Part shown: in pieces, positions 45,167 to 62,418 of the stretch
Position numbering within the stretch: the first letter of the stretch is position 1
Layout of the letters: every line of letters begins with the position of its first letter
Assembly (NCBI GenBank): GCA_002070215.1
Contig: MWCV01000009.1
Coordinates: 21,778-85,777 of the forward strand
Direction: 5' to 3'
DNA length: 64,000 nucleotides
From: Chloroflexi bacterium ADurb.Bin180
GTDB lineage: Bacteria; Chloroflexota; Anaerolineae; UBA2200
Program-made: the position numbers and the translations under genes
Notes under the pieces: model-generated
The model's input: the letters and a program-made list of their open reading frames with translations, nothing else
Told to the model about the DNA's origin: nothing
The model's database searches: none

Positions 45167-46609
45167 ATGCGGTCGAGAAGCAAATCGTTACAGATCTGGT
45201 TGATAGCTACTATCGTTCTGGCCGTAGTGCTAGGCAGCTGCAAGTCTGCCCCGGCGCCTACGGCAACTGCTGAACCTCAGGTACAGGGATTCAACTGGCG
45301 GAAGTACGCTGGAACAGAGCTGTATCTCTTCTTGAACAAGCACCCGTACGCCGAGGCTTTGCTCGGCCAGATCGGCAAGTTCGAGGAGAAAACCGGCATC
45401 AAGGTCAGATACGACATGCTTTCGGAAGGCGAGTTCATGGAAAAGCTGCGGATCGAGCTCGCTGCCGGGACAGGCCTGTACGATGCCTTTATGACCGGCC
45501 CCTATACGGAATGGGAATACGCTCCGGCTGGCTGGCTGGAACCGCTCGAGCTATTCGTTAACGATCCGGCCAAGACCGACCAGGCGTACTACAAGTTCGA
45601 AGACTTTTACCCCAACACGCTCGCCGCCAACATGTGGGACCTGAACGTGGGCAGCGGTGTGGGGCAGGGCCACCTGTGGGCCGTTCCGACCATGGTCGAG
45701 ACTTATATCATTGCCTACCGCGCCGATCTCTTCGCCAAGTACAATCTCAAGGCTCCGACCACGCTGCAGGAAATGTACGATGCCGCCTCCGTCCTGACCA
45801 AAGGCGAGGGTGGTGATTTTCGCGGCTGGTTGGGCGCTGGCGACAAGGGCGGCAACGCAGTCTGGACCGGATTCCCCTCAACATTAATGTCGCACGCCGC
45901 GACCAAGCTGCCCGACTTTGACATCGTTGACGGCAAGCTCAAGTGCGTCATCAACCAGCCCGCTCTGGTGCCCGTTACGGACCTATGGATCAAGAACGTG
46001 CGCGACAACGGACCCCTGGGCTGGACCGCCATCACCTGGTACGATGCCATGGAGCTGTTCTCTACCGGACGCTATGGCATGATTTATGACTGCGACTTTT
46101 TCGCCTCCAACTTTGAGGACCCCGTCAAGTCGCAGGTCGCGGGCAAGGTCAAGTACGCGTCGCCCGTAGCGCCCGTGGGCGGCACGCCTGCCTCTAGCAT
46201 GTGGACCTGGGGCTTGAGCATGAACTCCAAGTCCAAGAACAAGGACGCCGCCTGGTTGCTCATGCAGTGGGCTACCGGCCCCGATACCCTGCTGGCCGCC
46301 ACACGCGACTTTAGGAACTATAACCCCACTCGCAAGTCAGTATGGGATGATCCGACCGTCTCTGCCACGCTGGGCAAGTGGGGCGAGGGCACTTATATGA
46401 CGGCCGTGCGCGCCAACCTGGAAAAGTACGCCCGGATTGGCTGGACACCAGAACCTCAGATCTGGACTCTGGCCGACTACTGGTCTGTGGCCCTGCAGGA
46501 AATTTGGTCAGGCGCCAAGACCACTCAGCAAGCTCTGGATGATGCAGCAAAGCAAATGGATGCTACTATCGCTCAGGTGGGCATCAAGCCCGGTCCGATA
46601 GGCAAGTAA
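45167..46609 (+). CDS. ABC transporter substrate-binding lipoprotein (family 1, sugar-type)
   Basis: The lipoprotein signal 'MRSRSKSLQIWLIATIVLAVVLGSCKS' contains an LGSC lipobox. An extracellular solute-binding fold follows. A GGGAGG SD is present. Confidence 0.9.
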   Translation: MRSRSKSLQIWLIATIVLAVVLGSCKSAPAPTATAEPQVQGFNWRKYAGTELYLFLNKHPYAEALLGQIGKFEEKTGIKVRYDMLSEGEFMEKLRIELAAGTGLYDAFMTGPYTEWEYAPAGWLEPLELFVNDPAKTDQAYYKFEDFYPNTLAANMWDLNVGSGVGQGHLWAVPTMVETYIIAYRADLFAKYNLKAPTTLQEMYDAASVLTKGEGGDFRGWLGAGDKGGNAVWTGFPSTLMSHAATKLPDFDIVDGKLKCVINQPALVPVTDLWIKNVRDNGPLGWTAITWYDAMELFSTGRYGMIYDCDFFASNFEDPVKSQVAGKVKYASPVAPVGGTPASSMWTWGLSMNSKSKNKDAAWLLMQWATGPDTLLAATRDFRNYNPTRKSVWDDPTVSATLGKWGEGTYMTAVRANLEKYARIGWTPEPQIWTLADYWSVALQEIWSGAKTTQQALDDAAKQMDATIAQVGIKPGPIGK

Positions 46610-46725
46610 TTCCCGCTGGAGGCGGACGGCAGCATCTCGCTGTCCGCCTCCAGACTCGCGCGAGCTCCGTTATCCGTGGACGGCTTGGTAACGTAAGGTA
46701 GCCAGAACGAAGGGAGCGAGTGACT

Positions 46726-47649
46726 ATGACGAGTATAAGTACCCCGGTGGGCACAGCGGCACCAAAAACGCTAACCACCGGCCGTGGCAGGGGCAGTCCA
46801 TCACGCAAGTGGCTGCCCGTGGTCTTGACGGGTCCGGCCTTCTTTGTGCCCTTTGTGCTGACCCTCGCCTGGATCCTGGGAGTCTACTGGAGTCTGACCG
46901 ACTATGACCTCCGCTTCGGGCTGCGCAACTATATCGGCCTGGCGAACTATATTGACCTGCTCAAGCTGCCGCTGTTCTGGACCTCGGTCAAGGTAACTCT
47001 GCAGTACACAGTGCTGACCGCAGGAATCGAGCTGCCCATCAGTCTGGGCTTTGCCATGATGCTGAACCGGGCCACCGGCTGGACGGCCAGATTGGCACGC
47101 AGCGTTATTATGGCTCCGCTCTGCATCTCGCCGGTCATCGCTGCTCTGATGTGGAAAATTATGCTGGGACCCAATCAGGGCCTGTTCAACTATGCGCTGC
47201 ATCTTGTTGGCCTGCCCAAGGTGGACTGGTTTGGCGATCCTCGCGTCGCCATGTGGTCGTTGATGATCGTCGACTGCTGGTTGTTCATCCCCTTTACCAC
47301 GCTCATTCTGTGGGGCGGGTTACAGAGTCTGCCCAAGACCCCCTATGAGGCGGCCGCAGTGGATGGCGCTTCAAGCTGGTTTACCTTCCGCAGGCTGACC
47401 CTGCCGCTGATGAAGCCCTTTGTGATGATCGCTCTGTTGTTCCGCGTCTGCGACAGCCTCAACGTCTTTGACACCATCTTTGCCACCACCAAAGGCGGAC
47501 CGGGGCGGGTCACGTTCGCGCTGAACTTGCTCGGGTACGACTCGGTGATGAGATGGTTCCGTCTCGGCTCCGGCCTGGCCGCCATGATGATCACGTACTT
47601 CCTGGCCTATGCCGTAGCCAAGCGCCTGATCGCATTTTTCCCCAAGTAG
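46726..47649 (+). CDS. ABC transporter permease (MalF/UgpA-like)
   Basis: It has 6 predicted TM segments and the EAA-like loop 'YEAAAVDGASSWFTFRRLTLP'. The ATG at 46726 has an AAGGGAG SD. The ORF track begins at GTG 46720. Confidence 0.85.
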   Translation: MTSISTPVGTAAPKTLTTGRGRGSPSRKWLPVVLTGPAFFVPFVLTLAWILGVYWSLTDYDLRFGLRNYIGLANYIDLLKLPLFWTSVKVTLQYTVLTAGIELPISLGFAMMLNRATGWTARLARSVIMAPLCISPVIAALMWKIMLGPNQGLFNYALHLVGLPKVDWFGDPRVAMWSLMIVDCWLFIPFTTLILWGGLQSLPKTPYEAAAVDGASSWFTFRRLTLPLMKPFVMIALLFRVCDSLNVFDTIFATTKGGPGRVTFALNLLGYDSVMRWFRLGSGLAAMMITYFLAYAVAKRLIAFFPK

Positions 47650-47664
47650 GAGGAGATCTCAACC

Positions 47665-48534
47665 ATGCACAGCACAGGACGCTCGCGTCGTGCAATAGGG
47701 GCAGTCATGATGTACGCTGCCTACATCCTCCTGATGGCATTCATTGTGTTCCCGCTTATCTGGATGCTGCTGATGTCGTTCAAGAATCCGACGGACGTAA
47801 TGGCCATACCGCCCAAGCTGTTCTTCAAGCCCACGTTGGACAACTACATCCGGCTGTTCTTTGGGCGTCAGCGCGAGGGCTACGCGCTGGTCAAGAGCGA
47901 CTTTCCATTGGCGATGAAGAACACCATTATCATCGCCGGAGGCGCGACCATCGTCTCCATGATCACCGGGACGCTGGCTGGCTATGCGTTGGCGCGCCTC
48001 CGTTTTGCCGCACGCGATTTCCTGGCCTTTACGATCCTGTCACTGCGCTTTTCGCCACCGCTCAGCATGATTATACCGGTGTACATCCTTTACCGCCGGA
48101 TCGGCCTGTACAACACCCATGTGGGCTTGATGCTGATCTACCAGATCATCTCCATGCCGATCATCATCTGGGTGGTGCGCAGCTACATTGAATCTGTGCC
48201 CGTGGACCTGGAACAGGCGGCTTGGATCGATGGCTATTCCTGGTGGCAGGGGTTTAGCAAGGTTCTCTTCCCTCTGATCGCCCCGGGCGTGGCCGCGACA
48301 TCAGTGCTGGCGTTCGTCTTTTGCTGGAACAACTTTGTGTTCGGCTTGATGCTGGGCGCCGCCGAAACGCACACCCTGACTGTCGCCACCAGCGCGTTTA
48401 TCTCCTACGAGCAGGTCCTGTGGGGGCAAATGGCCGCTGCCTCCGTGGTGACGATCATCCCGGCGATGATTTTTATCTTCCTGGTGCAGCGGTGGGTGGT
48501 TCGCGGCCTGACCTTTGGCGCCGTCAAGGGCTAG
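47665..48534 (+). CDS. ABC transporter permease (MalG/UgpE-like)
   Basis: An AGGAGG SD precedes it. The EAA motif is 'LEQAAWIDGYSWWQGFSKVLFPL'. It is a multi-TM protein. Confidence 0.85.
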   Translation: MHSTGRSRRAIGAVMMYAAYILLMAFIVFPLIWMLLMSFKNPTDVMAIPPKLFFKPTLDNYIRLFFGRQREGYALVKSDFPLAMKNTIIIAGGATIVSMITGTLAGYALARLRFAARDFLAFTILSLRFSPPLSMIIPVYILYRRIGLYNTHVGLMLIYQIISMPIIIWVVRSYIESVPVDLEQAAWIDGYSWWQGFSKVLFPLIAPGVAATSVLAFVFCWNNFVFGLMLGAAETHTLTVATSAFISYEQVLWGQMAAASVVTIIPAMIFIFLVQRWVVRGLTFGAVKG

Positions 48535-48555
48535 ACGAATCAGAAAGCGAGTGAG

Positions 48556-49659
48556 ATGGCAACCATCGTTCTGAAGGATCTTGTCAAAAAGTACGGTGAC
48601 GTCGAGGCTGTCAAGGGCATCAACCTGGAGATCCGCCACAAAGAGTTCTTTTGCTTCCTGGGCCCTTCGGGCTGCGGAAAGACGTCGACCCTGCGCGTGA
48701 TCGCCGGGCTCGAGGATATTACCGCCGGTGAAGTGTGGATAGGTGACAGGAAGGTCAACGGACTGGCACCCGCTGACCGCGACGTCTCGATGGCTTTTGA
48801 GACCTATGCTCTCTATCCGCCTTTGACGGTTCGCGAAAACCTGGCCTTCCCATTGGCGGCTCGCGGCGCCACTAAAGAGGCAATCGCGAACAAGGTCGCC
48901 GAGGTCGCGCGTATCCTGGACCTCAGCGATGTGCTGGATAAGAAGCCGGACCAGATCAGCGGCGGGCATCAGCAGCGGGTGTCGCTGGGCCGCTGCATCA
49001 TCCGTTCGCCCAACGCGTTTCTGTTCGACGAGCCGCTCTCGCACGTGGACTCGAAGGCGCGCCGCCAGATGCGCGGCGAAATCCGGCGCATTCAGCTCTC
49101 GCTGGGCATTACCTCGCTCTATGTGACCCATGACCAGTCGGAAGCACTGGCCCTGGCCGACCGGGTGATGATCATGAACGCGGGCGAGATCCAGCAAGTC
49201 GGCACACCGGACGAGGTCTACGACCGTCCGGCCAACCTGTTCGTGGCCGACTTTGTTGGCGAGCCGCCATTCAACCTTCTGGATTGCCGGCTGGTGAAGG
49301 AAGATGGTGTGAGCCGGTTCCGCCTGGACAAGGGCGGGTTCAGCCTTCGCGTACCCGATCGGTTGCTGCCTCTCCTTGCCGACCACGGCGATCAAGTGCT
49401 CAAGCTCGGCATCCGACCGATGTACATCGTTCCGCGGCTCACTCAGCCCGAAGAGCGGACCGTAGCGGGCAAGGTGTATGTGTTTGAGAATCTGGGCGAA
49501 GAAGGCGTGCTCACCGTGGACGTCGCCGGCGACCTGGTGCGTGTCACCACCACTCCTGACTTTCGGGGCAAGTCCGGCGACCCGGTGTGGCTCGACATGG
49601 ACACGAGCCGGGTGCACGTGTTTGATCCCGTTACCACGCGCAATATCACCCTGGACTGA
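48556..49659 (+). CDS. ABC transporter ATP-binding protein (MalK/UgpC-like), copy 1
   Basis: Walker A is 'GPSGCGKTS', the ABC signature is 'LSGGHQQR' and Walker B is 'FLFDEPLS'. It has a C-terminal MalK-type regulatory/TOBE domain. Confidence 0.9.
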   Translation: MATIVLKDLVKKYGDVEAVKGINLEIRHKEFFCFLGPSGCGKTSTLRVIAGLEDITAGEVWIGDRKVNGLAPADRDVSMAFETYALYPPLTVRENLAFPLAARGATKEAIANKVAEVARILDLSDVLDKKPDQISGGHQQRVSLGRCIIRSPNAFLFDEPLSHVDSKARRQMRGEIRRIQLSLGITSLYVTHDQSEALALADRVMIMNAGEIQQVGTPDEVYDRPANLFVADFVGEPPFNLLDCRLVKEDGVSRFRLDKGGFSLRVPDRLLPLLADHGDQVLKLGIRPMYIVPRLTQPEERTVAGKVYVFENLGEEGVLTVDVAGDLVRVTTTPDFRGKSGDPVWLDMDTSRVHVFDPVTTRNITLD

Positions 49660-49680
49660 CCAGGAGAGGGGAATCGAACG

Positions 49681-50793
49681 ATGGGTGAAGTAGTGCTGGA
49701 GAACGTCTGGAAGCGCTACGGCAAGACCGAAGCGGTGAAAGGACTCTCTCTGGAGGTCAAGGAAGAAGAGTGCATCGTCATCCTGGGCCCTTCCGGGGCT
49801 GGCAAGACGTCCACTCTCAAGATGATCGCGGGACTGGAAGACATCAGCTCCGGCCACATCTTCGTCAACGGCCGCCTGGTCGACAACCTTGAACCGCACG
49901 AGCGCAATGTGGCTATGACCTTTGAGACCTACGCCTTGTACCCGCACTTCTCAGTGTACGACAACCTGGCCTTTCCGCTGCGCTCGCCCAAACACAAGGT
50001 GCCCGAAGTAGAGATCAAGCAGCGCGTGGACAAGGTGGCAGATATGCTTGGCATTGGCGGCCTGCTCGACCGCCTGCCGGCTCAGCTCAGCCAGGGGCAG
50101 AAGCAGCGCGTGGGCCTGGGACGCACGCTGGTTCGCCAGCCATCTGTGTTTCTCTTCGATGAGCCGCTGGCCCACGTGGATGCCAAGATTCGCAACCGCA
50201 TGCGTATGGAGATCAAGCGTATCCAGGAAGAGTTGCGCACCACGTCGATCTTTGTCACCCACGACTATCTGGAAGCGCTTTCGCTGGGCGACCGCATCGC
50301 CGTCCTCGACAAGGGCGTGCTGCAGCAGATTGGAGCACCGCAGCAGATCTTCGAAAACCCTGCCAACAGCTTTGTGGCCGGGATCGTGGGCGACCCGCCG
50401 TGCAACCTCTTTGATGCCCGCGTGGCGCGCTTGGGCGGCGAGATGGCCTTCGTCAGCCGGGATGGCTGCTGCCAAATGCCGATGTCCCCGGGTTTGGCGG
50501 AGACACTGCGTCCCCACGTGGGCGAGGAGGTCAAAGTGGGCGTGCGGCCGATGTACGTTACCCCTTCATTCGTCGCGAGCGAGGGATGCATAGCCGGCAC
50601 GGTGTATGTCTTTGAGCGTTTTGAGACCAAGGGTGTGCTCCAGGTCCAGGTAGGGGAGACACGTATCGCCGCGATGACCACGCCGGATCTGAAGGTACAG
50701 CTCAACCAGCCCGTGTGGCTCAAGGTTCAGCCGCGGCGTGTGCTGGCGTTCGACGTCGCGTCAGGGCGCGCGCTTCCGCCGTCCGATGTCTAG
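49681..50793 (+). CDS. ABC transporter ATP-binding protein (MalK/UgpC-like), copy 2
   Basis: Walker A is 'GPSGAGKTS', the signature is 'LSQGQKQR' and Walker B is 'FLFDEPLA'. Confidence 0.9.
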   Translation: MGEVVLENVWKRYGKTEAVKGLSLEVKEEECIVILGPSGAGKTSTLKMIAGLEDISSGHIFVNGRLVDNLEPHERNVAMTFETYALYPHFSVYDNLAFPLRSPKHKVPEVEIKQRVDKVADMLGIGGLLDRLPAQLSQGQKQRVGLGRTLVRQPSVFLFDEPLAHVDAKIRNRMRMEIKRIQEELRTTSIFVTHDYLEALSLGDRIAVLDKGVLQQIGAPQQIFENPANSFVAGIVGDPPCNLFDARVARLGGEMAFVSRDGCCQMPMSPGLAETLRPHVGEEVKVGVRPMYVTPSFVASEGCIAGTVYVFERFETKGVLQVQVGETRIAAMTTPDLKVQLNQPVWLKVQPRRVLAFDVASGRALPPSDV

Positions 50794-50926
50794 CGGGCGC
50801 GCGGCCTGGAGCGTGAAAGGGCTTTGGGACTCGGTTTGACAGGCGTCGCGCGGTGCCCGGCATCGACTGGTCGTGATGGTTGCGCCGGCGCCGAAATCAT
50901 AGAAGATGATCGAGAAAGGAGCTGCA

Positions 50927-51742
50927 ATGACTGACATGGGTAAGAAGTTGAGGATGGGGCGTATTTTCAACCCCAAGACCGGCAAAGCAGTGGTGATGCC
51001 GATGGACCAGCCGCTCTACGGCTATCACGAGGCTTTGGTCGATTTGGTTCCACTGGTGCATGGGCTGATCGAAGCCGGCGCCACCGCGTTTCTGCTTGCC
51101 CGCGGCACGGCCAAGGCAGTCGCCGACGAGTTGGCCGGCCGAGCAGGATTGATCTACCGAACGCACGTGGCCACGGCCTTTAGCCGGGTCGACACCGAAT
51201 ACGCCGTCTACTCGACCGTAGAAGAGGCCCTCCGCCTGGGCGCCGATGCCGTGGCTCCCTGCGTGTTCCTGGGCTCTCCGACCGAGAAGGACGACCTCAC
51301 CGCCTGGGGCCTGATGGCCGACGAATGCGACAAGTGGGGCATGCCCATCTTTCCCGAGGTTCATCCGCCCGCCGTGCTGCCCGGTGCCAAGGTTTATGAT
51401 GGACCGTATGGTTGGGAGGAAATGCGCCTGACCATCCGCATCGCCTCAGAGGTCGGCGCGGACTTTATCAAGACCTGGTACAGCGGTGACGCTGAGAGCT
51501 ACCGCAAGATCCTCAGCTTCAGCCAGGTGCCCGTGCTTATCGCTGGCGGCGCGCCGACCGACGACGCTCGCAAGGTGCTGCAGATCGTGCGCGGTGCGAT
51601 GGATGCCGGAGCGGGCGGTGTGTCGATGGGCCGCAAGGTCTGGGGCGGCAAGACCCCGTTCGCGATGTGCCGTGCGGTTTCAAAGATCATCCAGGAAAAT
51701 GCCACCGTGGATGAAGCGCTTAAGGAGTTCAACAGGAAGTAG
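50927..51742 (+). CDS. class I aldolase of the DeoC/FbaB (DhnA) family, LsrF-like
   Basis: 'LRMGRIFNPKTGKAVVMPMDQP' and 'ADFIKTWYSG...VPVLIAGG...GGVSMGRKVW' align with LsrF/FbaB-type enzymes, including the Schiff-base Lys context 'IKTWY'. An AAAGGAG SD precedes the ATG at 50927. Confidence 0.75.
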   Translation: MTDMGKKLRMGRIFNPKTGKAVVMPMDQPLYGYHEALVDLVPLVHGLIEAGATAFLLARGTAKAVADELAGRAGLIYRTHVATAFSRVDTEYAVYSTVEEALRLGADAVAPCVFLGSPTEKDDLTAWGLMADECDKWGMPIFPEVHPPAVLPGAKVYDGPYGWEEMRLTIRIASEVGADFIKTWYSGDAESYRKILSFSQVPVLIAGGAPTDDARKVLQIVRGAMDAGAGGVSMGRKVWGGKTPFAMCRAVSKIIQENATVDEALKEFNRK

Positions 51743-51908
51743 TGACCCGATCGCGGCGGCCGGGCAGGCCAGCGTCCAGTGCTCACTGAACCCAAAAGCC
51801 TGCCTGGCTGGCCGCGACGTACGGGTGTTTCAGAGCTGTTGCGCGATGCTTCGGAACCGACCGCCCGTCGAGCTGACGCCGGTCCACACTGATGACGGAG
51901 TGCTGAGA

Positions 51909-52916
51909 ATGAAAGAAGCCTTGCTCTATGGTGTACGCGACCTCAGGGTGGTAGAGTCACCCAAACCCGAGATTGGCCCCTACGACGTGCTGGTGCGTGT
52001 GCGGGCCTGCGGCATCTGTCCGACCGACCTGCGCAAGTACCTCTTGCTCCACGAGTCGGCGCAGGTGCCACACCTACCGCTCAACATGGGACACGAGTTC
52101 GCTGGCGATGTGGTGGAGGTGGGTGCCAAGGTAACGCGGCCGATCAAGGTGGGCATGCGCGTGGCGGCCTCGGACTATGGTGGTTACGCCGAGTACGCGC
52201 GGCTTGGTCCCTGCCGCACGGAAGAGGACATCGCCATCGAGGCCATCGACACCGTGTTTGAGCTGCCGGAGAACGTGTCGTACGAAGAAGGAACCCTGAT
52301 GGAGCCGCTGGCCTGCGCGATCCATGCGGTGCGCGACCAGGCCAAGATCCAGGTGGGCCAAACGGTCGCCATTCTCGGCTCGGGCCAAATGGGCCTGCTC
52401 AAGATGGGTGTCGCTCAGGCCATGGGCGCGCGGGTCATTATGGTCGACCTGCGCGAGGATCGTTTGGCCTGGGCGGTCAAGCTGGGCGCCGACGAGACCG
52501 TCAACGCCAGCACGGAAGATCCTGTGGCAGCGGTGCGACGGCTCACTCACGGCGAGGGAGCGGAGGCGGTGATCGTGTCGCCCGGGCGCGTGCCCGAGAT
52601 GATACCGCAGGCGCTGGGCATGGCCGCATACCTGGGCCGTGTAGTGCTGTTTGGCGGATACAAGAAGGGCACCTCGGTGCCGTTCGACCCGAACGTCATT
52701 CACTATGGCGAGATCATCCTTACCGGCTGTGAAGGCATCGGCGTCAAGCCCTCGCCCACGGATTTACTTACTTTCAAGATCGCGCTGGACCTGATCGCTT
52801 CGGGGCGTGTGCCGGTGAGCAAGATCATCACCCACACGTTCCCGCTGGACGAGATCACGGTCGCCTTTGGCGTGTTGGAGCGGATGGAAGCGATGAAAGT
52901 CGTGCTCAAGATCTAG
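51909..52916 (+). CDS. zinc-dependent medium-chain alcohol/polyol dehydrogenase
   Basis: 'GPYDVLVRVRACGICPTDL' is the catalytic Zn site. 'ILGSGQMGLLKMGVAQAMGA' is the Rossmann GxGxxG. It is 335 aa from the ATG at 51909, with a GGAG SD. Confidence 0.85.
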   Translation: MKEALLYGVRDLRVVESPKPEIGPYDVLVRVRACGICPTDLRKYLLLHESAQVPHLPLNMGHEFAGDVVEVGAKVTRPIKVGMRVAASDYGGYAEYARLGPCRTEEDIAIEAIDTVFELPENVSYEEGTLMEPLACAIHAVRDQAKIQVGQTVAILGSGQMGLLKMGVAQAMGARVIMVDLREDRLAWAVKLGADETVNASTEDPVAAVRRLTHGEGAEAVIVSPGRVPEMIPQALGMAAYLGRVVLFGGYKKGTSVPFDPNVIHYGEIILTGCEGIGVKPSPTDLLTFKIALDLIASGRVPVSKIITHTFPLDEITVAFGVLERMEAMKVVLKI

Positions 52917-54706: not shown

Positions 54707-56038
54707 ATGGAAGGGAGCCTCGTGACCACTGGACAGCATCTCATTCTGCATCGAACTTCCCGCCGCGAGATGAAAGAAGGCAAGATACCGGTCATCGTCA
54801 AAGGTGAGGGCGTTTATGTTTGGGACCAGGCCGGGCGCAAGTACCTGGACTTTGTCTCCGCGGTGACCCGCGTTTCGCACCTGGGATACGGCCGCAAGGA
54901 GATTGCTCAGGCGATGTACGACCAGGCCTGTCAGCTCAGCTACTATAGCCCGTTTCAGTTCGCCACCCAGCCGGCCATGGAGATGGCTGACGTGCTCGCC
55001 GAGGTGGCGCCGGGTCAGATCAGCCAGTTCTTCTTTGTCTGCGACGGCTCCGAGTCCGTAGAGGCCGCGCTGAAACTGGCCAAGCACTACCATTACTTCC
55101 GCGGTGACAAGCAGCGCCACAAAGTCATCTCCCGGCGAGGGGCCTATCACGGCACTACCGGTGGCGCACTGCGCGCGCTGGGCGTGGTGCTGCCGATGCG
55201 CCACATCATGGAGCCAGTTGGACCGGGGACGGTGTGGGCAGAGTCACCCTACTGCTATCGCTGCCCGCTGCACCTGTCCTACCCGGCCTGCGACCTGGCC
55301 TGCGCCAGGGACGTGGCGCGGATTATCGAGTTCGAAGGACCCGAGCAGGTCTCGGTGTTCATTGGTGAGCCCATTCAGCAAGGGTTCGGCGTGCTTCCCG
55401 CGCCCCCGGGGTACTGGAAGACCATCCGCGAGATCTGCGACCGCTATGGCATCCTCATCATTCACGACGAAATCATCTCGGCCTTTGGTCGAACCGGCAA
55501 GTGGTTTGCCAGTGAGCATTTCGGCGTGTGGCCTGATCTGGTCACGATGGCCAAGGGCCTGGCCAGCGGCTATGCGGCGCTGGGTGCGGTGGGCTGCACC
55601 GAAAAGGTGATCGAGCCCGTGGACACGTTCCATCACATCCACACCTATGGCAATCATCCGGTGGCTTGCGCCGCGGCACTGGCTTCGATGCGCATTATGA
55701 AGAACGAGCATCTGGTGCAGCACGCCGAGCGTATGGGTGTTTACCTGAAGCAAGGCCTGGAGTCGCTGTCCGGACATCGCGTCTTTGGCGAGGCGCGCGT
55801 GGTGGGGGTGTGGGGCGCTATCGACTGCACCACCGACCGCCAGACCCGAGCTCCGTTCCCGGCCGAGCGGCTGGCGAGCCTGGTGCGCCGGGCGCAGGAC
55901 AAGGGATTGATCATCAAGAGTATGGGCCAGGCACTCGAGTTCGCTCCACCGCTGATCATCGAGAAGGAGCATATCGACCGGGCCGTGCGCATTCTGGACG
56001 AGTGTCTGACCGAAGAAGAAAAGGACATGAATCTGTAG
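54707..56038 (+). CDS. class III (omega-type) PLP-dependent aminotransferase
   Basis: 'IHDEIISAFGRTGKWFASE' is the PLP-lysine region. 'GDKQRHKVISRRGAYHGTT' matches the aminotransferase class III fold. Its ATG immediately follows the kinase stop. Confidence 0.85.
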   Translation: MEGSLVTTGQHLILHRTSRREMKEGKIPVIVKGEGVYVWDQAGRKYLDFVSAVTRVSHLGYGRKEIAQAMYDQACQLSYYSPFQFATQPAMEMADVLAEVAPGQISQFFFVCDGSESVEAALKLAKHYHYFRGDKQRHKVISRRGAYHGTTGGALRALGVVLPMRHIMEPVGPGTVWAESPYCYRCPLHLSYPACDLACARDVARIIEFEGPEQVSVFIGEPIQQGFGVLPAPPGYWKTIREICDRYGILIIHDEIISAFGRTGKWFASEHFGVWPDLVTMAKGLASGYAALGAVGCTEKVIEPVDTFHHIHTYGNHPVACAAALASMRIMKNEHLVQHAERMGVYLKQGLESLSGHRVFGEARVVGVWGAIDCTTDRQTRAPFPAERLASLVRRAQDKGLIIKSMGQALEFAPPLIIEKEHIDRAVRILDECLTEEEKDMNL

Positions 56039-56085
56039 CAACTGCGCATTGGCAGCGCAGGTCGCCGGGGAGAGCCGCTAAAGCA

Positions 56086-57636
56086 ATGGGCGCCGACTAT
56101 CTGTTGGGAATCGACGTAGGCACTTTCGGCTCCAAGGGCGTCCTGGTGGACGTCCACGGCCGGATTCTGGCGTCTGCCTTTGTGGAGCATGGCGAAGAAA
56201 GCCCTAGGACAGGCTGGTACGAGCAGGATGCGGACGCGGTCTGGTGGGGCGATCTGATCAAGATCACGGGCCGCCTGGTAGGTACTGTGCCAGGCGGCGC
56301 CGGCTCGGTCGCCGCGGTTGGGGTCAGCGCCGTGACACCAGATGTGTTGCCGGTCGACGCCCGGGGCAACGCTCTCCGCAGGGCGATCCTGTACTCGGAC
56401 ACCCGGGCGGCGAGCCAGGCCAAGCGCATGGTGGAGGTCCTTGGCCAGGACGCGATCCTTGCCACCTGCGGCAATGCTCTGTCAGTGCAGTCCGCTGGCC
56501 CCCGGCTTCTCTGGCTGCGGGAAAACGAGCCTGACCTGTTCTGGAGAGCGCACAAGATTATGGACGCGCCGGCGTTTCTCGTGCATCGCCTGACCGGCAC
56601 CTTCTGCGCCGACCGTTCTTCCATTGGCGCGTATCACCCGTTCATGAATATCCGCACACTGGAGTGGGACGAAGCCATCTGCGCCGAGTTTGGGGTGCCG
56701 GTGGACAAGCTGCCCGAGCTGCGTTGGTCAACCGACATCGTGGGCTCGGTGACCCGGGCAGCGGCAGCGGCGACTGGCCTGGTTGAGGGCATCCCGGTGA
56801 TCGCAGGCGCCGGCGACGGAATAGCCGAAATGGTGAGTGTTGGCCCCGAGCACGAAGGCGAGGCTGCCCTGCTGTATGGCACCACCATGGTTCTCGTCAC
56901 GCTGACCAGGCGCCTCCGGCCGCACCCGAAGGTGATCACGCTGGCAGGTCCGCTTCCCGGAACCTATGTGTCCGGCGCCTACATGAACACCTCGGCAGCT
57001 CTGTCGCGATGGTTCCGCGACAACTTGGGTCAGGTGGAGCGCCGGCTCGAAGCTCAACTGGGCATCAACGCCTATCAGCTGCTCAGCAGCGATGCGGCCG
57101 AGGTGCCACCTGGGTCCGCAGGCCTGGTGGTCCTGCCGTACTTTGCCGGTGAGGGTTACCCGATCCTGGATGAGCAGGCACGCGGTCTGATTCTGGGCCT
57201 CACCCTGACCCATACGCGAAAGCATGTCTACCGCGCCCTGCTCGAGGGCGTGGCCTACGGACTGCGGCATAACTGGGAGACCATTCTCAGCGCTGGCGTC
57301 AACATCACTCGGATTCGGGCCGTTGGCGGAGGCACCAAGAGCGCAGTATGGACTCAGATCATCAGTGACGTGATCGGACAGGACCAGGAGCTGGTGGCCT
57401 CACATCTCGGCGCTCCCTACGGTGATGCCTATCTGGCAGGGCTGGGCATAGGCATGTTCCGCGACCTATCGACCTTGCACGAGGAGTGGGTGCGGACCAT
57501 TGGCGTGGTCAAGCACAGGCCCGAGATCAAGCCAGTGTACGATTCGTACTATGCCGTGTATAAGGAGCTCTATCCGCCTCTGGCGGATTCAATGCATACT
57601 CTCGCTCGGATTTCGGTCGAGCCAGTGAACGTCTAG
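56086..57636 (+). CDS. FGGY-family carbohydrate kinase, copy 2
   Basis: 'MGADYLLGIDVGTFGSKGVLV...' is co-linear with copy 1 at roughly 55-60% identity. The ORF track extends spuriously upstream to 55666. Confidence 0.85.
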   Translation: MGADYLLGIDVGTFGSKGVLVDVHGRILASAFVEHGEESPRTGWYEQDADAVWWGDLIKITGRLVGTVPGGAGSVAAVGVSAVTPDVLPVDARGNALRRAILYSDTRAASQAKRMVEVLGQDAILATCGNALSVQSAGPRLLWLRENEPDLFWRAHKIMDAPAFLVHRLTGTFCADRSSIGAYHPFMNIRTLEWDEAICAEFGVPVDKLPELRWSTDIVGSVTRAAAAATGLVEGIPVIAGAGDGIAEMVSVGPEHEGEAALLYGTTMVLVTLTRRLRPHPKVITLAGPLPGTYVSGAYMNTSAALSRWFRDNLGQVERRLEAQLGINAYQLLSSDAAEVPPGSAGLVVLPYFAGEGYPILDEQARGLILGLTLTHTRKHVYRALLEGVAYGLRHNWETILSAGVNITRIRAVGGGTKSAVWTQIISDVIGQDQELVASHLGAPYGDAYLAGLGIGMFRDLSTLHEEWVRTIGVVKHRPEIKPVYDSYYAVYKELYPPLADSMHTLARISVEPVNV

Positions 57637-57700
57637 CAGCTCTGGGCAGCGGCGAGCTTTCCGCGAGCTGATAGATCACTATCGAGGAAGGAGAAATCGG

Positions 57701-59602
57701 ATGTTGGGTTGTGTAGCAGGCAGGATTCTGCACGTTGATCTTACGAAAGGTCAGCTGAAGGTCGAGGAGCCGCCCGAATCCTTCTACCGCAAGTATGGCG
57801 GTGGCAGCGCGATGGGCACGTACTATATTCTCAAGCATACTCCCGCCGGAATAGATGCGTTTTCTCCCAAGAACACGCTTACGCTCTTTGTCGGTCTGGC
57901 GACGGGACTGCCGGTTTCGGGTCAGGCCCGAGTTTGCGCCAACGCCAAGTCGCCCCTGACAGGTGCCATCGGCGACTCGCAGGCCGGCGGTTTCTTCCCG
58001 GCCGAGCTGAAGTTCGCAGGCTTTGACGGCGTCGTCATTCGCGGCAGGTCCAAGACGCCGGTCTATCTCTGGCTGCACGACGGCCAGGCCGAGCTGTGCG
58101 ATGCATCTGGGCTGTGGGGGAAGGACACGGGGGAGGTTGAAGACCTGCTGCAGAAAGAGCTCAACGACCCCAAGATCCAGGTCCTGCAGATCGGTCCGGC
58201 AGGTGAGCGGCTGGTGCGTTTCGCCAGCCTGATCAACATGTGCAATCGCGCCAATGGGCGGACCGGCATGGGTGCGGTGATGGGTTCCAAGAACCTGAAG
58301 GCGGTAGTAGTGCGCGGCACGGGCAAGCCGACAGCGGCGCACCCGGAAGAGCTGGCGGCGATCAGCAAGCAGGGCCTGCAGAGTCTCGCTGACATACCCG
58401 ACATGACCGGCCTGTCAAACAATGGCACGAGCGACGGCCTGGGCTGGCAGAACGACTTTGGCACCCTGCCTACCCGCAACTGGAACGAAGGTCAGTTCGA
58501 GCATTTCGAGAACCTTACCGGCCAGAAGATGACCGATACGATTCTGAAGGAGAGGGATACCTGCTTCGGTTGCATCGTCCGCTGTAAGCGCGTGGTCGAG
58601 ACCGAGTACGACGGACGCAAGGTCCTTCCGCGCTATGGTGGCCCGGAATACGAGACCATGAGCACGCTGGGCTCGTACTGCGCCGTGTCCGAGCTGGGCG
58701 CCGTTGCCCTGGGCAACCAGCTGTGCAACCAGCTCGGCCTGGATTCGATCAGTGCCGGCGCTACGGTCGCCTTTGCCATGGAGTGCTTTGAGAATGGACT
58801 GCTCACAGAGAAGGACACGGGCGGAATAGATTGCAGGTTCGGCAACGCTCGCGCTATGCTGCGCCTGCTGGAGATGATCGCTGAGCGCGAAGGGCTGGGC
58901 GACCTGTTGGCCGAAGGGACGGAGCGCGCCGCGGCCAAGATTGGCAAGAACGCCGCCGAGTTTCTCATCACTGCCAAGTCGCAGGAGGCGCCTGCCCACA
59001 TGCCTCACGCCAAAAGGTCGCTGGGACTCATCTACGCGGTGAACCCCTTTGGCGCCGACCACCAGTCGTCGGAACACGATCCCACCTACGAGGATGGTGC
59101 GTTCCCGCTGTACCCGCAGCGTCTGGCTATGTTGGGGTTGACCTCGCCTCAGCCGGTAGGCAGCATGAATGACGAGAAGGTACGCTTTGCCTATCTGACG
59201 CAGCTGTTCTTTAGCGCGATGGACTCTTACTCGCTGTGCCAGTTTGTCTGGGGCCCCACCTACGAGCTGTACGGCCCACAGGAGACGGTGGCCATGCTGC
59301 GTGCCGTGACCGGTTGGGACGACCTGACCCTCGACGAGCTGATGAGCGTGGGAGAGAGGCGCCTGAACATGATGCGCGCCTTTAACGCCCGTGAGGGTCT
59401 GGACCGCAAGCAGGACAAGCTCGCGAGCAGGTTCGCCCAGCCGCTGGGAGGCACGGGACGTACGGCGGGCGTGTCCATCGATCCGGCCGAACTGGAACGC
59501 CACAAGGACTCGTACTACAAGCTGGCTGGCTGGAGCAAAACTACCGGCAACCCGAGCGCGAAAAAGCTGGCCTCGTTGGGTCTGGACTGGATCAAGCCCT
59601 AG
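57701..59602 (+). CDS. aldehyde:ferredoxin oxidoreductase (AOR) family, tungsten/molybdopterin enzyme
   Basis: The N-terminus 'GRILHVDLTKGQLKVEEPPESFYRKYGGGSAMGTYYIL' is typical of AOR. It is 633 aa. A GAGGAAGGAG SD is present. Confidence 0.8.
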   Translation: MLGCVAGRILHVDLTKGQLKVEEPPESFYRKYGGGSAMGTYYILKHTPAGIDAFSPKNTLTLFVGLATGLPVSGQARVCANAKSPLTGAIGDSQAGGFFPAELKFAGFDGVVIRGRSKTPVYLWLHDGQAELCDASGLWGKDTGEVEDLLQKELNDPKIQVLQIGPAGERLVRFASLINMCNRANGRTGMGAVMGSKNLKAVVVRGTGKPTAAHPEELAAISKQGLQSLADIPDMTGLSNNGTSDGLGWQNDFGTLPTRNWNEGQFEHFENLTGQKMTDTILKERDTCFGCIVRCKRVVETEYDGRKVLPRYGGPEYETMSTLGSYCAVSELGAVALGNQLCNQLGLDSISAGATVAFAMECFENGLLTEKDTGGIDCRFGNARAMLRLLEMIAEREGLGDLLAEGTERAAAKIGKNAAEFLITAKSQEAPAHMPHAKRSLGLIYAVNPFGADHQSSEHDPTYEDGAFPLYPQRLAMLGLTSPQPVGSMNDEKVRFAYLTQLFFSAMDSYSLCQFVWGPTYELYGPQETVAMLRAVTGWDDLTLDELMSVGERRLNMMRAFNAREGLDRKQDKLASRFAQPLGGTGRTAGVSIDPAELERHKDSYYKLAGWSKTTGNPSAKKLASLGLDWIKP

Positions 59603-59623
59603 CACCAAAAGCGGAGGCGTAGA

Positions 59624-59857
59624 TTGCAGATCAAAGTTACCCTGCATTCTATCCTGTGCGAGTTGCTGCCGGCCGAAAACCGAGGCGTGGCCACTCTGGA
59701 CATAGTGCCAGGAACGACTCTAGCTGACGTCTCGGACCGGCTGGGAATCAAGGGTCGAGTGATCTTCACCGTCAACGGGAAAGTGGTCACCGAGTCGGCG
59801 AGCCGCCTGCACGCTGGCGACGATGTTCAGGTCTATGTGTCAGTGCACGGGGGGTAG
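59624..59857 (+). CDS. MoaD/ThiS-like small sulfur-carrier/ubiquitin-fold protein
   Basis: 77 aa ending in '...VYVSVHGG*', a C-terminal Gly-Gly. It has a TTG start with a GGAGG SD 6 nt upstream. It immediately follows the AOR gene. Confidence 0.6.
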   Translation: MQIKVTLHSILCELLPAENRGVATLDIVPGTTLADVSDRLGIKGRVIFTVNGKVVTESASRLHAGDDVQVYVSVHGG

Positions 59858-59858
59858 A

Positions 59859-61181
59859 GTGACTAGCAATCAGGAGAATCTTTATGCTCGCGCCAGGCAA
59901 CACCTTGTCGCGGGGGTTGGGGCCGCTGGACGCTTTAACGGTAGCCTGGGACACCCGGTTTACTTCGCACGAGGTGATGGCGCCTACCTGTGGGATGTGG
60001 ATGGCCGCCGCTACCTCGACCTGAACTGCTCGCATGGTGCGACCATCCTGGGCCACAATCATGCCAGCACCAGGGCGGCCATCATCCGTGCCCTCGACGC
60101 GGGAGTCCTGGCAGCGTGCGAGACGGAGAGCACGGTCGCCCTGGCCGAGCGCATTGGCAGCTTTTTGCCGTGTGCCGAGCGCGTGCGTTACCTGCCCTCT
60201 GGCACGGAGGTCACGCTGGTGGCGCTGCGGCTGGCGCGCGCGGCCACAGGGCGTTCCAGGATCCTGCGTTTTGAGGGTCACTTTCACGGCATGCATGAAC
60301 TGGTGCACTACGCTCCGCGTGAGCCGCTCGACGCTTCACGGCCCTTTGCGCTGGGAAACCCGGCGACCGCCGGGGTTCCGCGCGAGATGGGCGACTATGT
60401 GTGCATCGCCCCATGGAATGACGTCGCGGCGTTTGACGCGGTGATGGCCGCCTACGGCTCTGAGCTGGCCGCGGTCATTCTGGAGCCGGTGTCCTACAAC
60501 ATGGGCTGCGTCCCCGCCGAGCGGGCTTTCCTGGAGCACGTCCGGCTCAAGACCGCATCTAACGGCACGGTGCTGATCTTTGACGAGATCCTCTCCGGGT
60601 TTCGCACCGGGGTGGACTGCATGCAGGGGCACTATGGCGTCACGCCGGACCTGTGCACGCTGGGCAAAGCCATCGCCAACGGAGTGCCGATCGCGGTGCT
60701 GGCCGGCAAGCAGGCGTTCATGGACGAGCTGGCACCGACCGGAGCGGTGGCGCAAAGCGGTACGTACAGCGGCCATCAGTTCGGTGTTCAGGCGGCGCTG
60801 GCCACGCTGGACGAGCTGCAGGAGCCCGGCTTTTATCGTCGCCAGGAGGCGCTCGCAGCACAGCTCTATGGCGGCCTGGCCGCGCTGCTGAAGGATCACC
60901 GGGTGGTCGGTCGGGTTCAGGGACTTGGTGCCCGTTTCGGACTATACTTTGGGGTGGGTTCCGAGGTGCGGAACTATCACGATGCTTCGCGGCGTGATGT
61001 GCAGGCGATGCATCGCTTTGTCCGCGGCTGCTATGCCCGTGGGGTTTACTTTCAGACCATCGGCCACGCCATCGGCCATTCGGGCTTCAACGGGGCCTGC
61101 ACCGAAGGGGACATCACCTGGGCGCTGGAGCAGTTCGATGCGGTACTCGGAGATATGCGCCGCGAGGGCGTCGGCGGCTAG
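59859..61181 (+). CDS. class III aminotransferase of the glutamate-1-semialdehyde 2,1-aminomutase (HemL-like) family
   Basis: 'TSNQENLYARARQHLVAGVGAAGRF...GAYLWDVDGRRYLDL' aligns with the HemL N-terminus '[25 protein letters not shown]'. The GTG at 59859 is the preferred start. The ORF track begins at 59823, overlapping the MoaD gene. Confidence 0.75.
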   Translation: MTSNQENLYARARQHLVAGVGAAGRFNGSLGHPVYFARGDGAYLWDVDGRRYLDLNCSHGATILGHNHASTRAAIIRALDAGVLAACETESTVALAERIGSFLPCAERVRYLPSGTEVTLVALRLARAATGRSRILRFEGHFHGMHELVHYAPREPLDASRPFALGNPATAGVPREMGDYVCIAPWNDVAAFDAVMAAYGSELAAVILEPVSYNMGCVPAERAFLEHVRLKTASNGTVLIFDEILSGFRTGVDCMQGHYGVTPDLCTLGKAIANGVPIAVLAGKQAFMDELAPTGAVAQSGTYSGHQFGVQAALATLDELQEPGFYRRQEALAAQLYGGLAALLKDHRVVGRVQGLGARFGLYFGVGSEVRNYHDASRRDVQAMHRFVRGCYARGVYFQTIGHAIGHSGFNGACTEGDITWALEQFDAVLGDMRREGVGG

Positions 61182-61254
61182 TTGGAACGGTCGTTAAAGC
61201 AATGACCGGCCCAGATCGGCGCCGGTCGCAAACCGAATCTAATGGAGGCAAGTC

Positions 61255-61554
61255 ATGGTAGCCAAGGTCAAGATCACGGTAGCCAAGCGCACGTCGAACG
61301 CGGATCTCATCGCGGCGTACGGCAACAAGGTGCTGCCGCAATGCGACGTGCTGAAGGATGGACAAGAATTCATCTCGGAAGAATTCAAGGTCCCGCCGGG
61401 GTTCTGCCCCTGGGCGTGGGTAGACATCCAGCGCGACGTCGTCGTGCTCGCCTGCGGTGGCAACTTTGATTGGGTGAAGCAGAAGGGGCTCGGCTTTTCG
61501 AGCTGCACGGACGGTTTTCGGCCGGTGGTGTTCCGACTCGAGCGCATTGAGTAG
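61255..61554 (+). CDS. small Cys-containing protein resembling the TIGR04076 family
   Basis: 99 aa, 'MVAKVKITVAKRTSNADLIAAYGNKVLPQCDVLKDGQEFISEEFKVPPGFCPWAWVDIQ...GGNFDWVKQKGLGFSSCTDGFRPVVFRLERIE'. It matches the KVKITV...YGN...C...GQ.F...P.GFC..AW...C.DG.RPV.F.LE pattern of that family. A GGAGG SD lies 6 nt upstream. Confidence 0.6.
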   Translation: MVAKVKITVAKRTSNADLIAAYGNKVLPQCDVLKDGQEFISEEFKVPPGFCPWAWVDIQRDVVVLACGGNFDWVKQKGLGFSSCTDGFRPVVFRLERIE

Positions 61555-61602
61555 AGCCGCGGTGGCAGCCCGCACTCACGGGGCTGGCAGGAGCAAAGCG
61601 GT

Positions 61603-62418
61603 ATGAGGCTTGAAGGCAAGGTGACGCTGGTCTCGGGAGGCAGCTCGGGCATCGGCCGGGCGACGGCCATGCTGATGGCCAACGAGGGCGCCCGGGTCGT
61701 TCTCGCGTGCCGCGACCAGGCGCGCGGCGACGAGGTCGTGCGGGAGATCCGCGCGCAGGGCGGTCAAGCGAGCCTGGTGCGCTGTGATGTGTGCGAGCTC
61801 GCTGACTGCGAGGCGGCCGTGGCGCACACCGCGGACACCTGGGGCCGACTGGATGTGCTGTTCAACAACGCCGGGGTGATCTTTCCCGGTCGCAGCGTGG
61901 TGCAAACGTCACTGCAGGAGTGGCAGAAGACGTTCGATACCAACGTCAGCGGCGCCTACCTGATGTCCAAATTCGCCATTCCCCTCATGACGGCCAGCGG
62001 TGGAGGCGTGATCATCAACACGGCCTCCGACAAGGGGCTGGTAGGGAGGCGCGGGTGTGCTGCCTATTGCGCCTCCAAAGGAGCGGTGGTCCAGCTAACC
62101 AGGGCGATGGCGCTGGACCACGCCCGCGAGGGCATTCGCGTCAACTGCATCTGCCCGGGCAGCGTGGATACGCCTATGCTGCGGCATGAGATGGAGCTGC
62201 TCGGCGACCGGGACGCCATGCGCGAGGCGTTTGCCGCCAAGCACCCTCTGAACCGCATTTGTACGCCGGAAGAAGTGGCCGCGGTGGTGGTGTTTCTGGC
62301 ATCGAGCGAGGCTGCCTTTATCACCGGCGCCGCGCTGAGCGTCGATGGCGGGCGCCTGGCGGGCGAGCTCGACGCATCGCTGTGGCCGCGGCCCTCAGGC
62401 GGTACCCTCCCCGGTTGA
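61603..62418 (+). CDS. SDR-family short-chain dehydrogenase/reductase
   Basis: 'GKVTLVSGGSSGIGRA' is the TGxxxGxG motif. 'YCASKGAV' is the YxxxK catalytic motif. 'NAG' is also present. Confidence 0.85.
   Translation: MRLEGKVTLVSGGSSGIGRATAMLMANEGARVVLACRDQARGDEVVREIRAQGGQASLVRCDVCELADCEAAVAHTADTWGRLDVLFNNAGVIFPGRSVVQTSLQEWQKTFDTNVSGAYLMSKFAIPLMTASGGGVIINTASDKGLVGRRGCAAYCASKGAVVQLTRAMALDHAREGIRVNCICPGSVDTPMLRHEMELLGDRDAMREAFAAKHPLNRICTPEEVAAVVVFLASSEAAFITGAALSVDGGRLAGELDASLWPRPSGGTLPG

Follow-up and report, generated by a model that had tools for sequence, protein, structure and literature searches.

Which compound is broken down by a bacterium that encodes, in one row of genes, a sugar-type importer, an aldolase, two FGGY-family kinases, two aminotransferases and an aldehyde oxidoreductase? 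This combination is found on contig MWCV01000009.1 of Chloroflexi bacterium ADurb.Bin180, a 3.13-Mb metagenome-assembled genome of the Chloroflexota (95% complete), within a stretch of 64,000 nucleotides that was analysed as a whole, is called the window here, and supplies the positions used throughout. Few groups in anaerobic digesters are as abundant, and few as rarely cultured, as the Chloroflexota, whose diets are largely inferred. Judged from its gene content and its relatives elsewhere, the cluster is a composite and not one conserved pathway, and its particular feature is the fusion of a polyol importer/dehydrogenase core with a trio of genes for an aldehyde:ferredoxin oxidoreductase (AOR), a MoaD-like protein and a transaminase. 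We propose, with a probability of roughly 0.4, that the cluster works as a funnel, in which a polyol and a 2-amino-polyol would converge on one ketose kinase/aldolase route and the resulting aldehyde would be passed to the AOR.

Organisation and transcription of the cluster

The cluster comprises 18 open reading frames (ORFs) in a row at 44205-62418 (~18 kb), all on the + strand and separated by gaps of 0-166 nt, with families assigned by Pfam and NCBIfam profiles (Table 1). A GntR/UTRA regulator is followed by the binding protein, two permeases and two ATPases of the importer, the aldolase, a Zn-dehydrogenase, a 54-residue ORF and kinase 1, and then by transaminase 1, kinase 2, the AOR, the MoaD-like protein, transaminase 2, a TIGR04076 family protein and a short-chain dehydrogenase/reductase (SDR). 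All gene families named in the original prediction, which had been made from the sequence and its ORFs without database searches, were recovered on this strand; the gene order it gave had to be corrected, and the regulator and promoter, which fall just upstream of the start it had set at 45167, as well as the 54-residue ORF, had to be added. The contig ends about 2 kb past the SDR gene, so that the downstream edge of the cluster is not fixed. For the description below we distinguish unit A (regulator, binding protein, two permeases, two ATPases, aldolase, Zn-dehydrogenase, small ORF and kinase) from unit B (an omega-transaminase between sister kinases, AOR, MoaD-like protein, HemL-like transaminase, TIGR04076 protein and SDR).

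A promoter-like site, TTGACA-17-TATACT (44074-44102; match at 11 of 12 positions), is the sole strong one within 43500-63000. No intergenic terminator-like sites were found in the same interval, and terminator-like sites overall occur there at chance frequency. Four metatranscriptome runs from three studies yielded short contigs (151-338 nt, at least 99% identity) from both halves of the cluster. These contigs fall in 10 of the 17 protein-coding genes and bridge the junctions or spacers of ATPase 1/ATPase 2, transaminase 1/kinase 2, MoaD/transaminase 2 and transaminase 2/TIGR04076. Level, strand or a single transcript cannot be read from contigs of this kind, and the parts that they leave uncovered are not to be equated with silence. 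Together, the one strong promoter, the lack of intergenic terminator-like sites and the junction-crossing contigs weakly indicate co-transcription of the whole cluster, which the original prediction had made a condition of its pathway.

Directly upstream of the promoter, and nowhere else in the window, are three exact 14-bp repeats, GTTCACTTTT[C/G]AAC, with 22-bp spacing (43989-44046), and directly downstream of the -10 element (region 43989-44160) are the short palindromes ATTGT-TAG-ACAAT and TTGTACAA. These repeats and palindromes are likely operator sites. The best NCBIfam match of the regulator encoded next to them is PhnF (95 bits, under the cut-off). An Rfam scan of 43000-64000 returned zero families and hence gave no riboswitch hint to the ligand.

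Conservation and distribution of the two units

All counts of genomic context given here refer to samples of genomes rather than to exhaustive searches. Loci in which unit A recurs as a block were reached through kinase relatives with 52-59% identity; their parts are 47-64% identical to those of the cluster, apart from the aldolase of locus L063. In this locus the binding protein is 55%, the permeases 50 and 61%, the ATPases 64 and 61%, the Zn-dehydrogenase 47% and the kinase 52% identical, the DeoC-family aldolase merely 29%, and the small ORF is present. Locus L062 has an aldolase (53%), a Zn-dehydrogenase (48%) and three kinases, and the P0124 contig shows the order of unit A unchanged. No transaminase, AOR, MoaD-like or TIGR04076 gene accompanies unit A in any of these three relatives. 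At higher identity, the order kinase 1, transaminase 1, kinase 2 is kept in L147 (~85%), and that of Zn-dehydrogenase, small ORF and kinase 1 in L148 (~78%). The unit A loci without amine genes and the gene orders in L147 and L148 therefore suggest that amine genes were recruited into a pre-existing polyol-type operon, along with a duplication of the kinase. The combination of kinase and class I aldolase on which the original prediction was built recurs, together with the dehydrogenase, as a conserved unit elsewhere; the single conserved pathway that it envisaged is not retained, since relatives of the core carry no transaminase or AOR.

As for unit B, the order AOR, MoaD-like protein, transaminase 2 is unchanged on a 1.3-kb metagenome contig (L163; AOR end 66%, MoaD-like protein 55% and transaminase 2 66-71% identical). 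AOR orthologues with 53-67% identity are common within the same class, and those with 60-62% adjoin class III transaminases in five of the twelve loci inspected; in a sixth same-class locus a MoaD-like gene follows the AOR. Relatives of transaminase 2 (66-67%) are found with a different AOR and Gfo/Idh/MocA oxidoreductases in two other sugar loci, and those within the phylum (45-57% identity) have no neighbours in common with the window. The trio in L163, the five same-class genomes and the two sugar loci bear out the link between transamination and aldehyde oxidation that had been predicted.

Loci L165-L168 and L171 have, after an AOR orthologue, first two class III aminotransferases and then a second AOR. 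The annotated locus of this set (L171:32-14605) also carries a PotABCD-like importer, an AsnC regulator, a saccharopine-dehydrogenase-like gene and an SSF symporter. The L171-type locus is a candidate anaerobic polyamine/amine catabolic locus, in which AORs would replace aldehyde dehydrogenases dependent on nicotinamide adenine dinucleotide (NAD).

A search of 400 Chloroflexota genomes, in which the best kinase reached 46%, gave no close orthologue of the whole cluster, and a query with transaminase 1 found nothing in nine genomes of the same family or in one of the same genus (88% complete). The matches listed in a metagenome scan with a kinase alignment were 38-46% relatives without other cluster genes, plus one partial match of 55% on a 2.2-kb contig. 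A 10-kb core of the cluster was detected, with at least half of the sampled words, in 14 DNA runs from many studies, mostly of anaerobic digesters and also of biofilm and biosolids. The guanine plus cytosine (GC) content of the cluster (62.2%) is close to the genome mean (63.0%), and a recent transfer, as judged by base composition, was rejected on this basis; together with the patchy occurrence, the GC content therefore suggests that the cluster is accessory, albeit not compositionally foreign. A close orthologue with an established role, which could have spoken against the predicted pathway, was not found.

Predicted import, oxidation, phosphorylation and aldol cleavage

With a family-1 binding protein, MalF/MalG-type permeases and a MalK/UgpC-type ATPase with TOBE/OB domain, the importer is of the CUT1 type. 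The nearest solved structures of the binding protein are 5iai (a 'sugar ABC transporter') and 4rya (a sorbitol/mannitol binder), in agreement with the carbohydrate-like import that had been predicted. There are two different ATPase genes (48556-50793), where the usual CUT1 system has one; the pair is kept in L063, the P0124 contig and L125, and implies a putative heterodimer.

In the translated Zn-dehydrogenase the catalytic Zn ligands are present and the structural-Zn loop is apparently missing; all its NCBIfam equivalog scores are far under the cut-offs. The 54-residue ORF that follows has no family match, and a small ORF of this kind is found at the equivalent position in L148 (80% identical), in L063 (57 residues) and on the P0124 contig (53 residues); it may encode a membrane accessory of the polyol module.

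Both kinases contain the two FGGY domains, and the invariant columns of the family alignment hold in both. Both score below the XylB equivalog cut-off (TIGR01312, 380 bits; scores in Table 1), and with the LsrK equivalog (cut-off 528) they reach 191 and 167 bits. They are 59% identical to each other and form, in a maximum-likelihood tree, sister paralogues inside a four-member clade (support 97/88); duplications within such clusters arose independently in other clades. By this tree the pair is a recent lineage-specific duplication, where the original prediction had taken the duplicated kinase as a hint of two related substrates or two sequential steps.

The aldolase is a member of the class I DhnA/FbaB/MJ0400 group by its DeoC/LacD TIM-barrel family and its Schiff-base lysine. 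It scores 225 bits with NF005556, the MJ0400/ADH synthase model (cut-off 241), and 191 bits with TIGR01949 (cut-off 299), and is thus under both cut-offs for ADH synthase (2-amino-3,7-dideoxy-D-threo-hept-6-ulosonate synthase). With the LsrF model it reaches 135.5 bits (cut-off 297), and among PDB matches 2qjg (MJ0400) scores 165 bits versus 100 bits for LsrF. On these scores the enzyme is closer to archaeal MJ0400 than to LsrF, and its description as LsrF-like in the original prediction has to be revised. When aligned to 2qjg, K189, the predicted Schiff-base lysine, corresponds to K184 of MJ0400, and D34 to D33, the active-site Asp. The residue aligned with the catalytic Tyr153 of MJ0400 is a His, and in relatives a Phe or Leu, in a region with an indel and with Tyr residues nearby.

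The subfamily of this aldolase is marked by the motif ADFIKTWY. Relatives at 44-49% identity, from Actinomycetota, Acidobacteria and Limnocylindrales, always occur with an FGGY kinase; beside them lies an amino-acid-type permease in six of seven long loci and often a GlpA/EryB-like flavoprotein and a D-serine-dehydratase-like pyridoxal phosphate (PLP) enzyme. In L001-L004, L007 and L008 (~2000-14000 each), the amino-acid-type permease is found with one or two FGGY kinases and the ADFIKTWY-type class I aldolase, and there the flavoprotein carries a BFD domain and an SDR is often added to it and to the PLP enzyme. The genome studied here holds a second pair of aldolase (33%) and Zn-dehydrogenase (31%), on contig C2:109193-110974 (L162), with no FGGY kinase nearby.

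Predicted transamination and aldehyde oxidation

The start codon of transaminase 1 abuts the stop codon of kinase 1 with zero gap. Its PDB neighbours are amine, putrescine and polyamine:pyruvate transaminases. The amine:pyruvate omega-transaminase of C. violaceum interconverts L-erythrulose and 2-amino-1,3,4-butanetriol (PMC6710532, PMC5813273), and transamination of a ketose to a 2-amino-polyol is therefore established chemistry of the family to which transaminase 1 belongs. Relatives at ~65% occur in contexts that are unrelated to one another and give no hint to a substrate. Elsewhere in the genome, on contig C7:62459-65481 (L161:5082-9482, minus strand), a class III aminotransferase, an FGGY kinase and a RuBisCO-like protein are encoded in a row, which looks like another uncharacterised amino-sugar-type module.

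Both AOR domains and a C-x2-C-x3-C 4Fe-4S motif are present in the translated AOR, which places it in the AOR family (tungsto- or molybdopterin) but does not single out tungsten, as the original prediction had done; its top PDB match is 1aor (353 bits). No AorA- or AorC-like genes are found among the cluster ORFs, which points to a single-subunit ferredoxin-dependent AOR. The genome holds eight AOR-family paralogues, which are 28-38% identical to the cluster AOR; these, and the presence of the DNA in digesters, agree with the anaerobic setting that had been proposed.

The MoaD-like protein scores 20.7 bits with the ThiS profile hidden Markov model, which is under the cut-off. This weak match is backed by its homologues, 46 of 49 of which match Pfam ThiS, by the Gly-Gly that is invariant in all 49, and by an AlphaFold2 model (predicted local distance difference test 86) whose closest folds in the PDB belong to MoaD subunits of molybdopterin synthase (template modelling score 0.78-0.80), so that the MoaD assignment made from the sequence holds. 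For an aor operon, MoaD-like genes have been put forward as candidate factors in cofactor maturation (PMC6365974).

The GTG start of transaminase 2 (59859) lies one base past the MoaD-like stop, and an alternative ATG is present at 59823. Transaminase 2 scores 343 bits with the hemL model TIGR00713 (cut-off 527). No match to hemA (TIGR01035) or hemB (PF00490) was found in the 95%-complete genome, with control genomes positive. A role as housekeeping HemL was therefore rejected, both on the score and on the absence of hemA and hemB.

Table 1. Features of the cluster and its regulatory region, with positions in the window
Feature	Position	Strand	Basis
Regulatory region	43989..44102	+	Repeats and promoter-like site
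GntR-family regulator with UTRA effector domain (HutC/PhnF type)	44205..45059	+	Pfam GntR 68 bits, UTRA 58 bits
SBP_bac_1 family-1 solute-binding protein, lipoprotein-type signal peptide	45167..46609	+	Pfam SBP_bac_1 104 bits
ABC permease 1, BPD_transp_1, UgpA/MalF type	46720..47649	+	Pfam, NCBIfam
ABC permease 2, BPD_transp_1, MalG type	47665..48534	+	Pfam, NCBIfam
ABC ATPase 1, UgpC/MalK type, TOBE and OB_MalK domains	48556..49659	+	UgpC model 389 bits, cut-off 432
ABC ATPase 2, distinct UgpC/MalK-type subunit	49681..50793	+	Pfam, NCBIfam
DeoC/DhnA class I (Schiff-base) aldolase, MJ0400 type	50906..51742	+	Pfam DeoC 101 bits
Medium-chain dehydrogenase/reductase (MDR) Zn-dehydrogenase, polyol or threonine dehydrogenase-like	51909..52916	+	Pfam ADH_N, ADH_zinc_N
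Conserved 54-residue ORF, two predicted hydrophobic helices	52955..53119	+	Position between Zn-dehydrogenase and kinase 1
FGGY kinase 1, XylB-like	53156..54706	+	Pfam FGGY_N, FGGY_C; XylB model 322 bits
Transaminase 1, class III omega-transaminase (amine:pyruvate type)	54707..56038	+	Pfam Aminotran_3 308 bits
FGGY kinase 2	56086..57636	+	Pfam FGGY_N, FGGY_C; XylB model 278 bits
Single-subunit aldehyde:ferredoxin oxidoreductase, AOR family	57701..59602	+	Pfam AFOR_N 243 bits, AFOR_C 389 bits
MoaD/ThiS-family beta-grasp protein, 77 residues, C-terminal Gly-Gly, TTG start	59624..59857	+	Homologues and AlphaFold2 model
Transaminase 2, HemL-like (glutamate-semialdehyde-aminomutase-like) class III aminotransferase	59859..61181	+	Pfam Aminotran_3 194 bits
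TIGR04076 family protein, small, four cysteines	61255..61554	+	NCBIfam TIGR04076 68 bits, above the cut-off of 33
Short-chain dehydrogenase/reductase (SDR)	61603..62418	+	Pfam adh_short_C2 234 bits; NF004791 310 bits, cut-off 312

Proposed route

In the proposed funnel, the CUT1 importer, with its polyol-type binding protein and heterodimeric ATPases, would take up a sugar-alcohol-like compound. The Zn-dehydrogenase would oxidise the polyol to a ketose, and transaminase 1 would convert the 2-amino analogue of the polyol to the same or a related ketose. The FGGY kinases would then phosphorylate the ketose, acting either on two related ketoses or at two positions, and the class I Schiff-base aldolase would cleave the ketose phosphate to dihydroxyacetone phosphate (DHAP) and a short aldehyde. 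Aldehydes would be oxidised to acids by the AOR, matured with the help of its MoaD-like neighbour and using ferredoxin as acceptor; the HemL-like transaminase 2 could turn a further primary amine into an aldehyde that feeds the AOR, and the SDR and TIGR04076 proteins may provide accessory redox steps. The GntR/UTRA protein would act as a repressor of the whole locus, to which unit B would have been added in this lineage. What the analysis shows directly is the identity and order of the genes, the conservation of the sub-units and their accessory distribution; the substrates, the sequence of reactions, the part played by each paralogue and expression as one transcript are inferred.

A related formulation is more tentative: the cluster might encode an undescribed anaerobic route for amino-polyols, either of the 2-amino-alditol type or hydrophilic relatives with a sphingoid or azasugar backbone, in which an amine:pyruvate transaminase replaces the polyol dehydrogenase in making a ketose, the duplicated FGGY kinases and an apparently Tyr-less class I aldolase lead on to DHAP, and the AOR-MoaD-transaminase trio delivers an acid and reduced ferredoxin.

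The funnel is favoured by the operon layout, by the conserved unit A block, by the polyol-type binding protein and by the intact core of the aldolase. It is also favoured by the ties of transaminase 1 to the kinases, namely the abutting genes, the order kept in L147 and a second transaminase-FGGY pair in the genome. The amine-linked neighbours of the aldolase subfamily and the coupling of AOR and transaminase in L163, five of twelve loci and two sugar loci point in the same direction. So do the recent duplication of the kinase, the ketose/2-amino-polyol chemistry known from the family of transaminase 1, the MoaD-like genes reported for an aor operon, and the finding that transaminase 2 is no housekeeping HemL.

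Several observations weigh on the other side. No enzyme of the cluster reaches any NCBIfam equivalog cut-off. The importer is of a sugar or polyol type and not of an amine type. Because the relatives of unit A work without a transaminase or AOR, the amine branch may have nothing to do with the compound taken up, and because the ~65% relatives of transaminase 1 occur in such different contexts, this enzyme may be a generalist. The residue at the Tyr153-aligned position of the aldolase is His, Phe or Leu, and cleavage may for that reason differ from a plain retro-aldol or fructose-bisphosphate-type reaction. The conservation of the complete AOR-MoaD-transaminase trio comes from one short contig, and the RNA contigs, besides weakly suggesting transcription, are compatible with carry-over of DNA and are no proof of one transcript.

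Alternative explanations

Two independent pathways might share one transcription unit without a common substrate, namely a polyol route and a generic unit that takes amines (polyamines or omega-amino compounds) by way of aldehydes to acids, with the AOR replacing NAD-dependent aldehyde dehydrogenases. The relatives of unit A that lack transaminases and AOR would fit this explanation, as would the amine locus L171, where a same-class AOR orthologue and two class III transaminases are accompanied by a saccharopine-dehydrogenase-like gene, an AsnC regulator and a PotABCD-like importer. Putrescine and polyamine:pyruvate transaminases are among the enzymes of solved structure nearest to transaminase 1, and the breakdown of a diamine calls for two transaminations plus aldehyde oxidation. 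We rate this main rival as somewhat less probable than the funnel, as transaminase 1 lies between the kinases, without a gap after kinase 1 and in a conserved order, the cluster has no amine-type importer, a single promoter precedes it with no internal terminator-like site, and transaminase 2 is HemL-like and not GabT-like. Less probable is a nitrogen-free route for a polyol or rare ketose, in which the aldehyde from the aldolase would be the sole link to unit B and the transaminases would work further down the route on oxo-acids or semialdehydes, or would aminate aldehydes and so detoxify them. Such a route agrees with the conserved unit A and its polyol-type binding protein, and also with the Fe-alcohol dehydrogenase and two SDRs encoded downstream in L063, which suggest that aldehyde disposal varies between lineages. 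It would, however, leave two different transaminases without a reason, and would explain neither the conserved AOR-MoaD-transaminase trio nor the position of transaminase 1 between the kinases.

An azasugar three-gene signature (PMC8382821) combines an aminotransferase and a Zn-dehydrogenase with a sugar-phosphate phosphatase, and the class III aminotransferase of the cluster and its Zn enzyme, which is sorbitol-dehydrogenase-like, could thus suggest synthesis of an iminosugar or amino-polyol. The signature is incomplete, as the phosphatase is absent among the cluster genes, which encode kinases instead; moreover, an importer and a HutC-type repressor head the cluster, the aldolase and AOR point to breakdown, and there are no exporter or tailoring enzymes in the cluster, which makes synthesis very improbable. 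The resemblance to autoinducer-2 (AI-2) uptake and processing that was seen in the original prediction, with an LsrK-like kinase and an LsrF-like thiolase acting on a phospho-diketone, fares even worse and is hardly credible. An FGGY kinase and a DhnA-family enzyme do share broad families with LsrK and LsrF, and lie beside an ABC importer as in the Lsr system of E. coli and Salmonella (LsrK, LsrF, LsrG, LsrACDB); the aldolase subfamily is moreover, like LsrF, without a Tyr at the position aligned with Tyr153 of MJ0400. Every specific test nonetheless fails, since the LsrK and LsrF scores given above are far under their cut-offs and are exceeded by those of the XylB and MJ0400-type models, the binding protein is of the SBP_bac_1 family and not of the LsrB type (periplasmic binding protein type I), and no LsrG-like ORF occurs among the cluster genes.

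Relation to known systems

The proposed funnel has its closest parallel in the L-fucose (FucK/FucA), L-rhamnose (RhaB/RhaD) and Zn-polyol-dehydrogenase routes, which likewise lead through a ketose, phosphorylation by an FGGY kinase, cleavage to DHAP and an aldehyde, and disposal of this aldehyde. In the fucose and rhamnose routes, however, the ketose is made by an isomerase, the aldolase is a class II metal enzyme and the aldehyde goes to FucO or AldA, whereas in the cluster the ketose would be made by a dehydrogenase and, as proposed, a transaminase, the aldolase is of the class I DhnA/MJ0400 type, and the aldehyde would go to a ferredoxin-linked AOR; the two kinases and two transaminases of the cluster are a further difference. 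MJ0400/ADH synthase (AroA') and FbaB/DhnA represent the best-scoring family for the aldolase, with Schiff-base Lys and active-site Asp kept. MJ0400 serves archaeal aromatic amino acid synthesis, whereas the cluster enzyme stands in a bacterial catabolic context with kinases and an importer, remains under the cut-off of 241 and has no Tyr at the Tyr153-aligned position.

The putrescine transaminase pathway (PatA/SpuC, PatD, GabT, GabD) also combines two class III transaminases with aldehyde oxidation, and SpuC-type enzymes are among the closest relatives of transaminase 1 with a solved structure; the cluster differs from it by an AOR with a MoaD-like partner, a HemL-like second transaminase, the lack of a polyamine importer and its sugar-type operon. 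In aorABCDE of Aromatoleum aromaticum, which encodes a tungsten AOR (PMC6365974), the AOR gene is likewise followed by MoaD-like genes (AorD/AorE), of which the cluster has one and not two; genes for AorA (iron-sulfur) and AorC (flavin adenine dinucleotide) are missing, so that the cluster resembles the single-subunit, ferredoxin-dependent archaeal type.

The open-access literature yielded no described pathway of this make-up, i.e. combining an FGGY kinase with a DhnA-type aldolase or class III aminotransferase, or an AOR with an aminotransferase in Chloroflexi, with TIGR04076 included in the search, in agreement with the original prediction, which saw no textbook pathway in this mixture. To our knowledge, both the association of transaminase, FGGY kinase and aldolase and that of AOR, MoaD-like protein and transaminase are without a described function. 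The cluster can be seen as a standard polyol route that has been extended by duplication of the kinase and by oxygen-independent amine and aldehyde enzymes, transaminases and a ferredoxin-linked AOR taking the place of oxidases and NAD-dependent dehydrogenases. If the amino-polyol reading is true, both associations would be explained together, digester food webs would gain a carbon and nitrogen source and bacterial AORs a physiological role; an undescribed amino-polyol route would provide the first AOR-family enzyme that is an integral step of bacterial sugar-type catabolism. For biochemistry, the cluster offers a small and clean set of targets: the binding protein, the aldolase, and a pair each of kinases and transaminases.

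In the same-genus genome, the syntenic site after the YfhO-like gene is occupied by other genes. Upstream of the cluster, the window (31783-41349) and this same-genus locus (L160) differ by an 8-kb insert, without which the radical SAM and YfhO-like genes are adjacent in L160.

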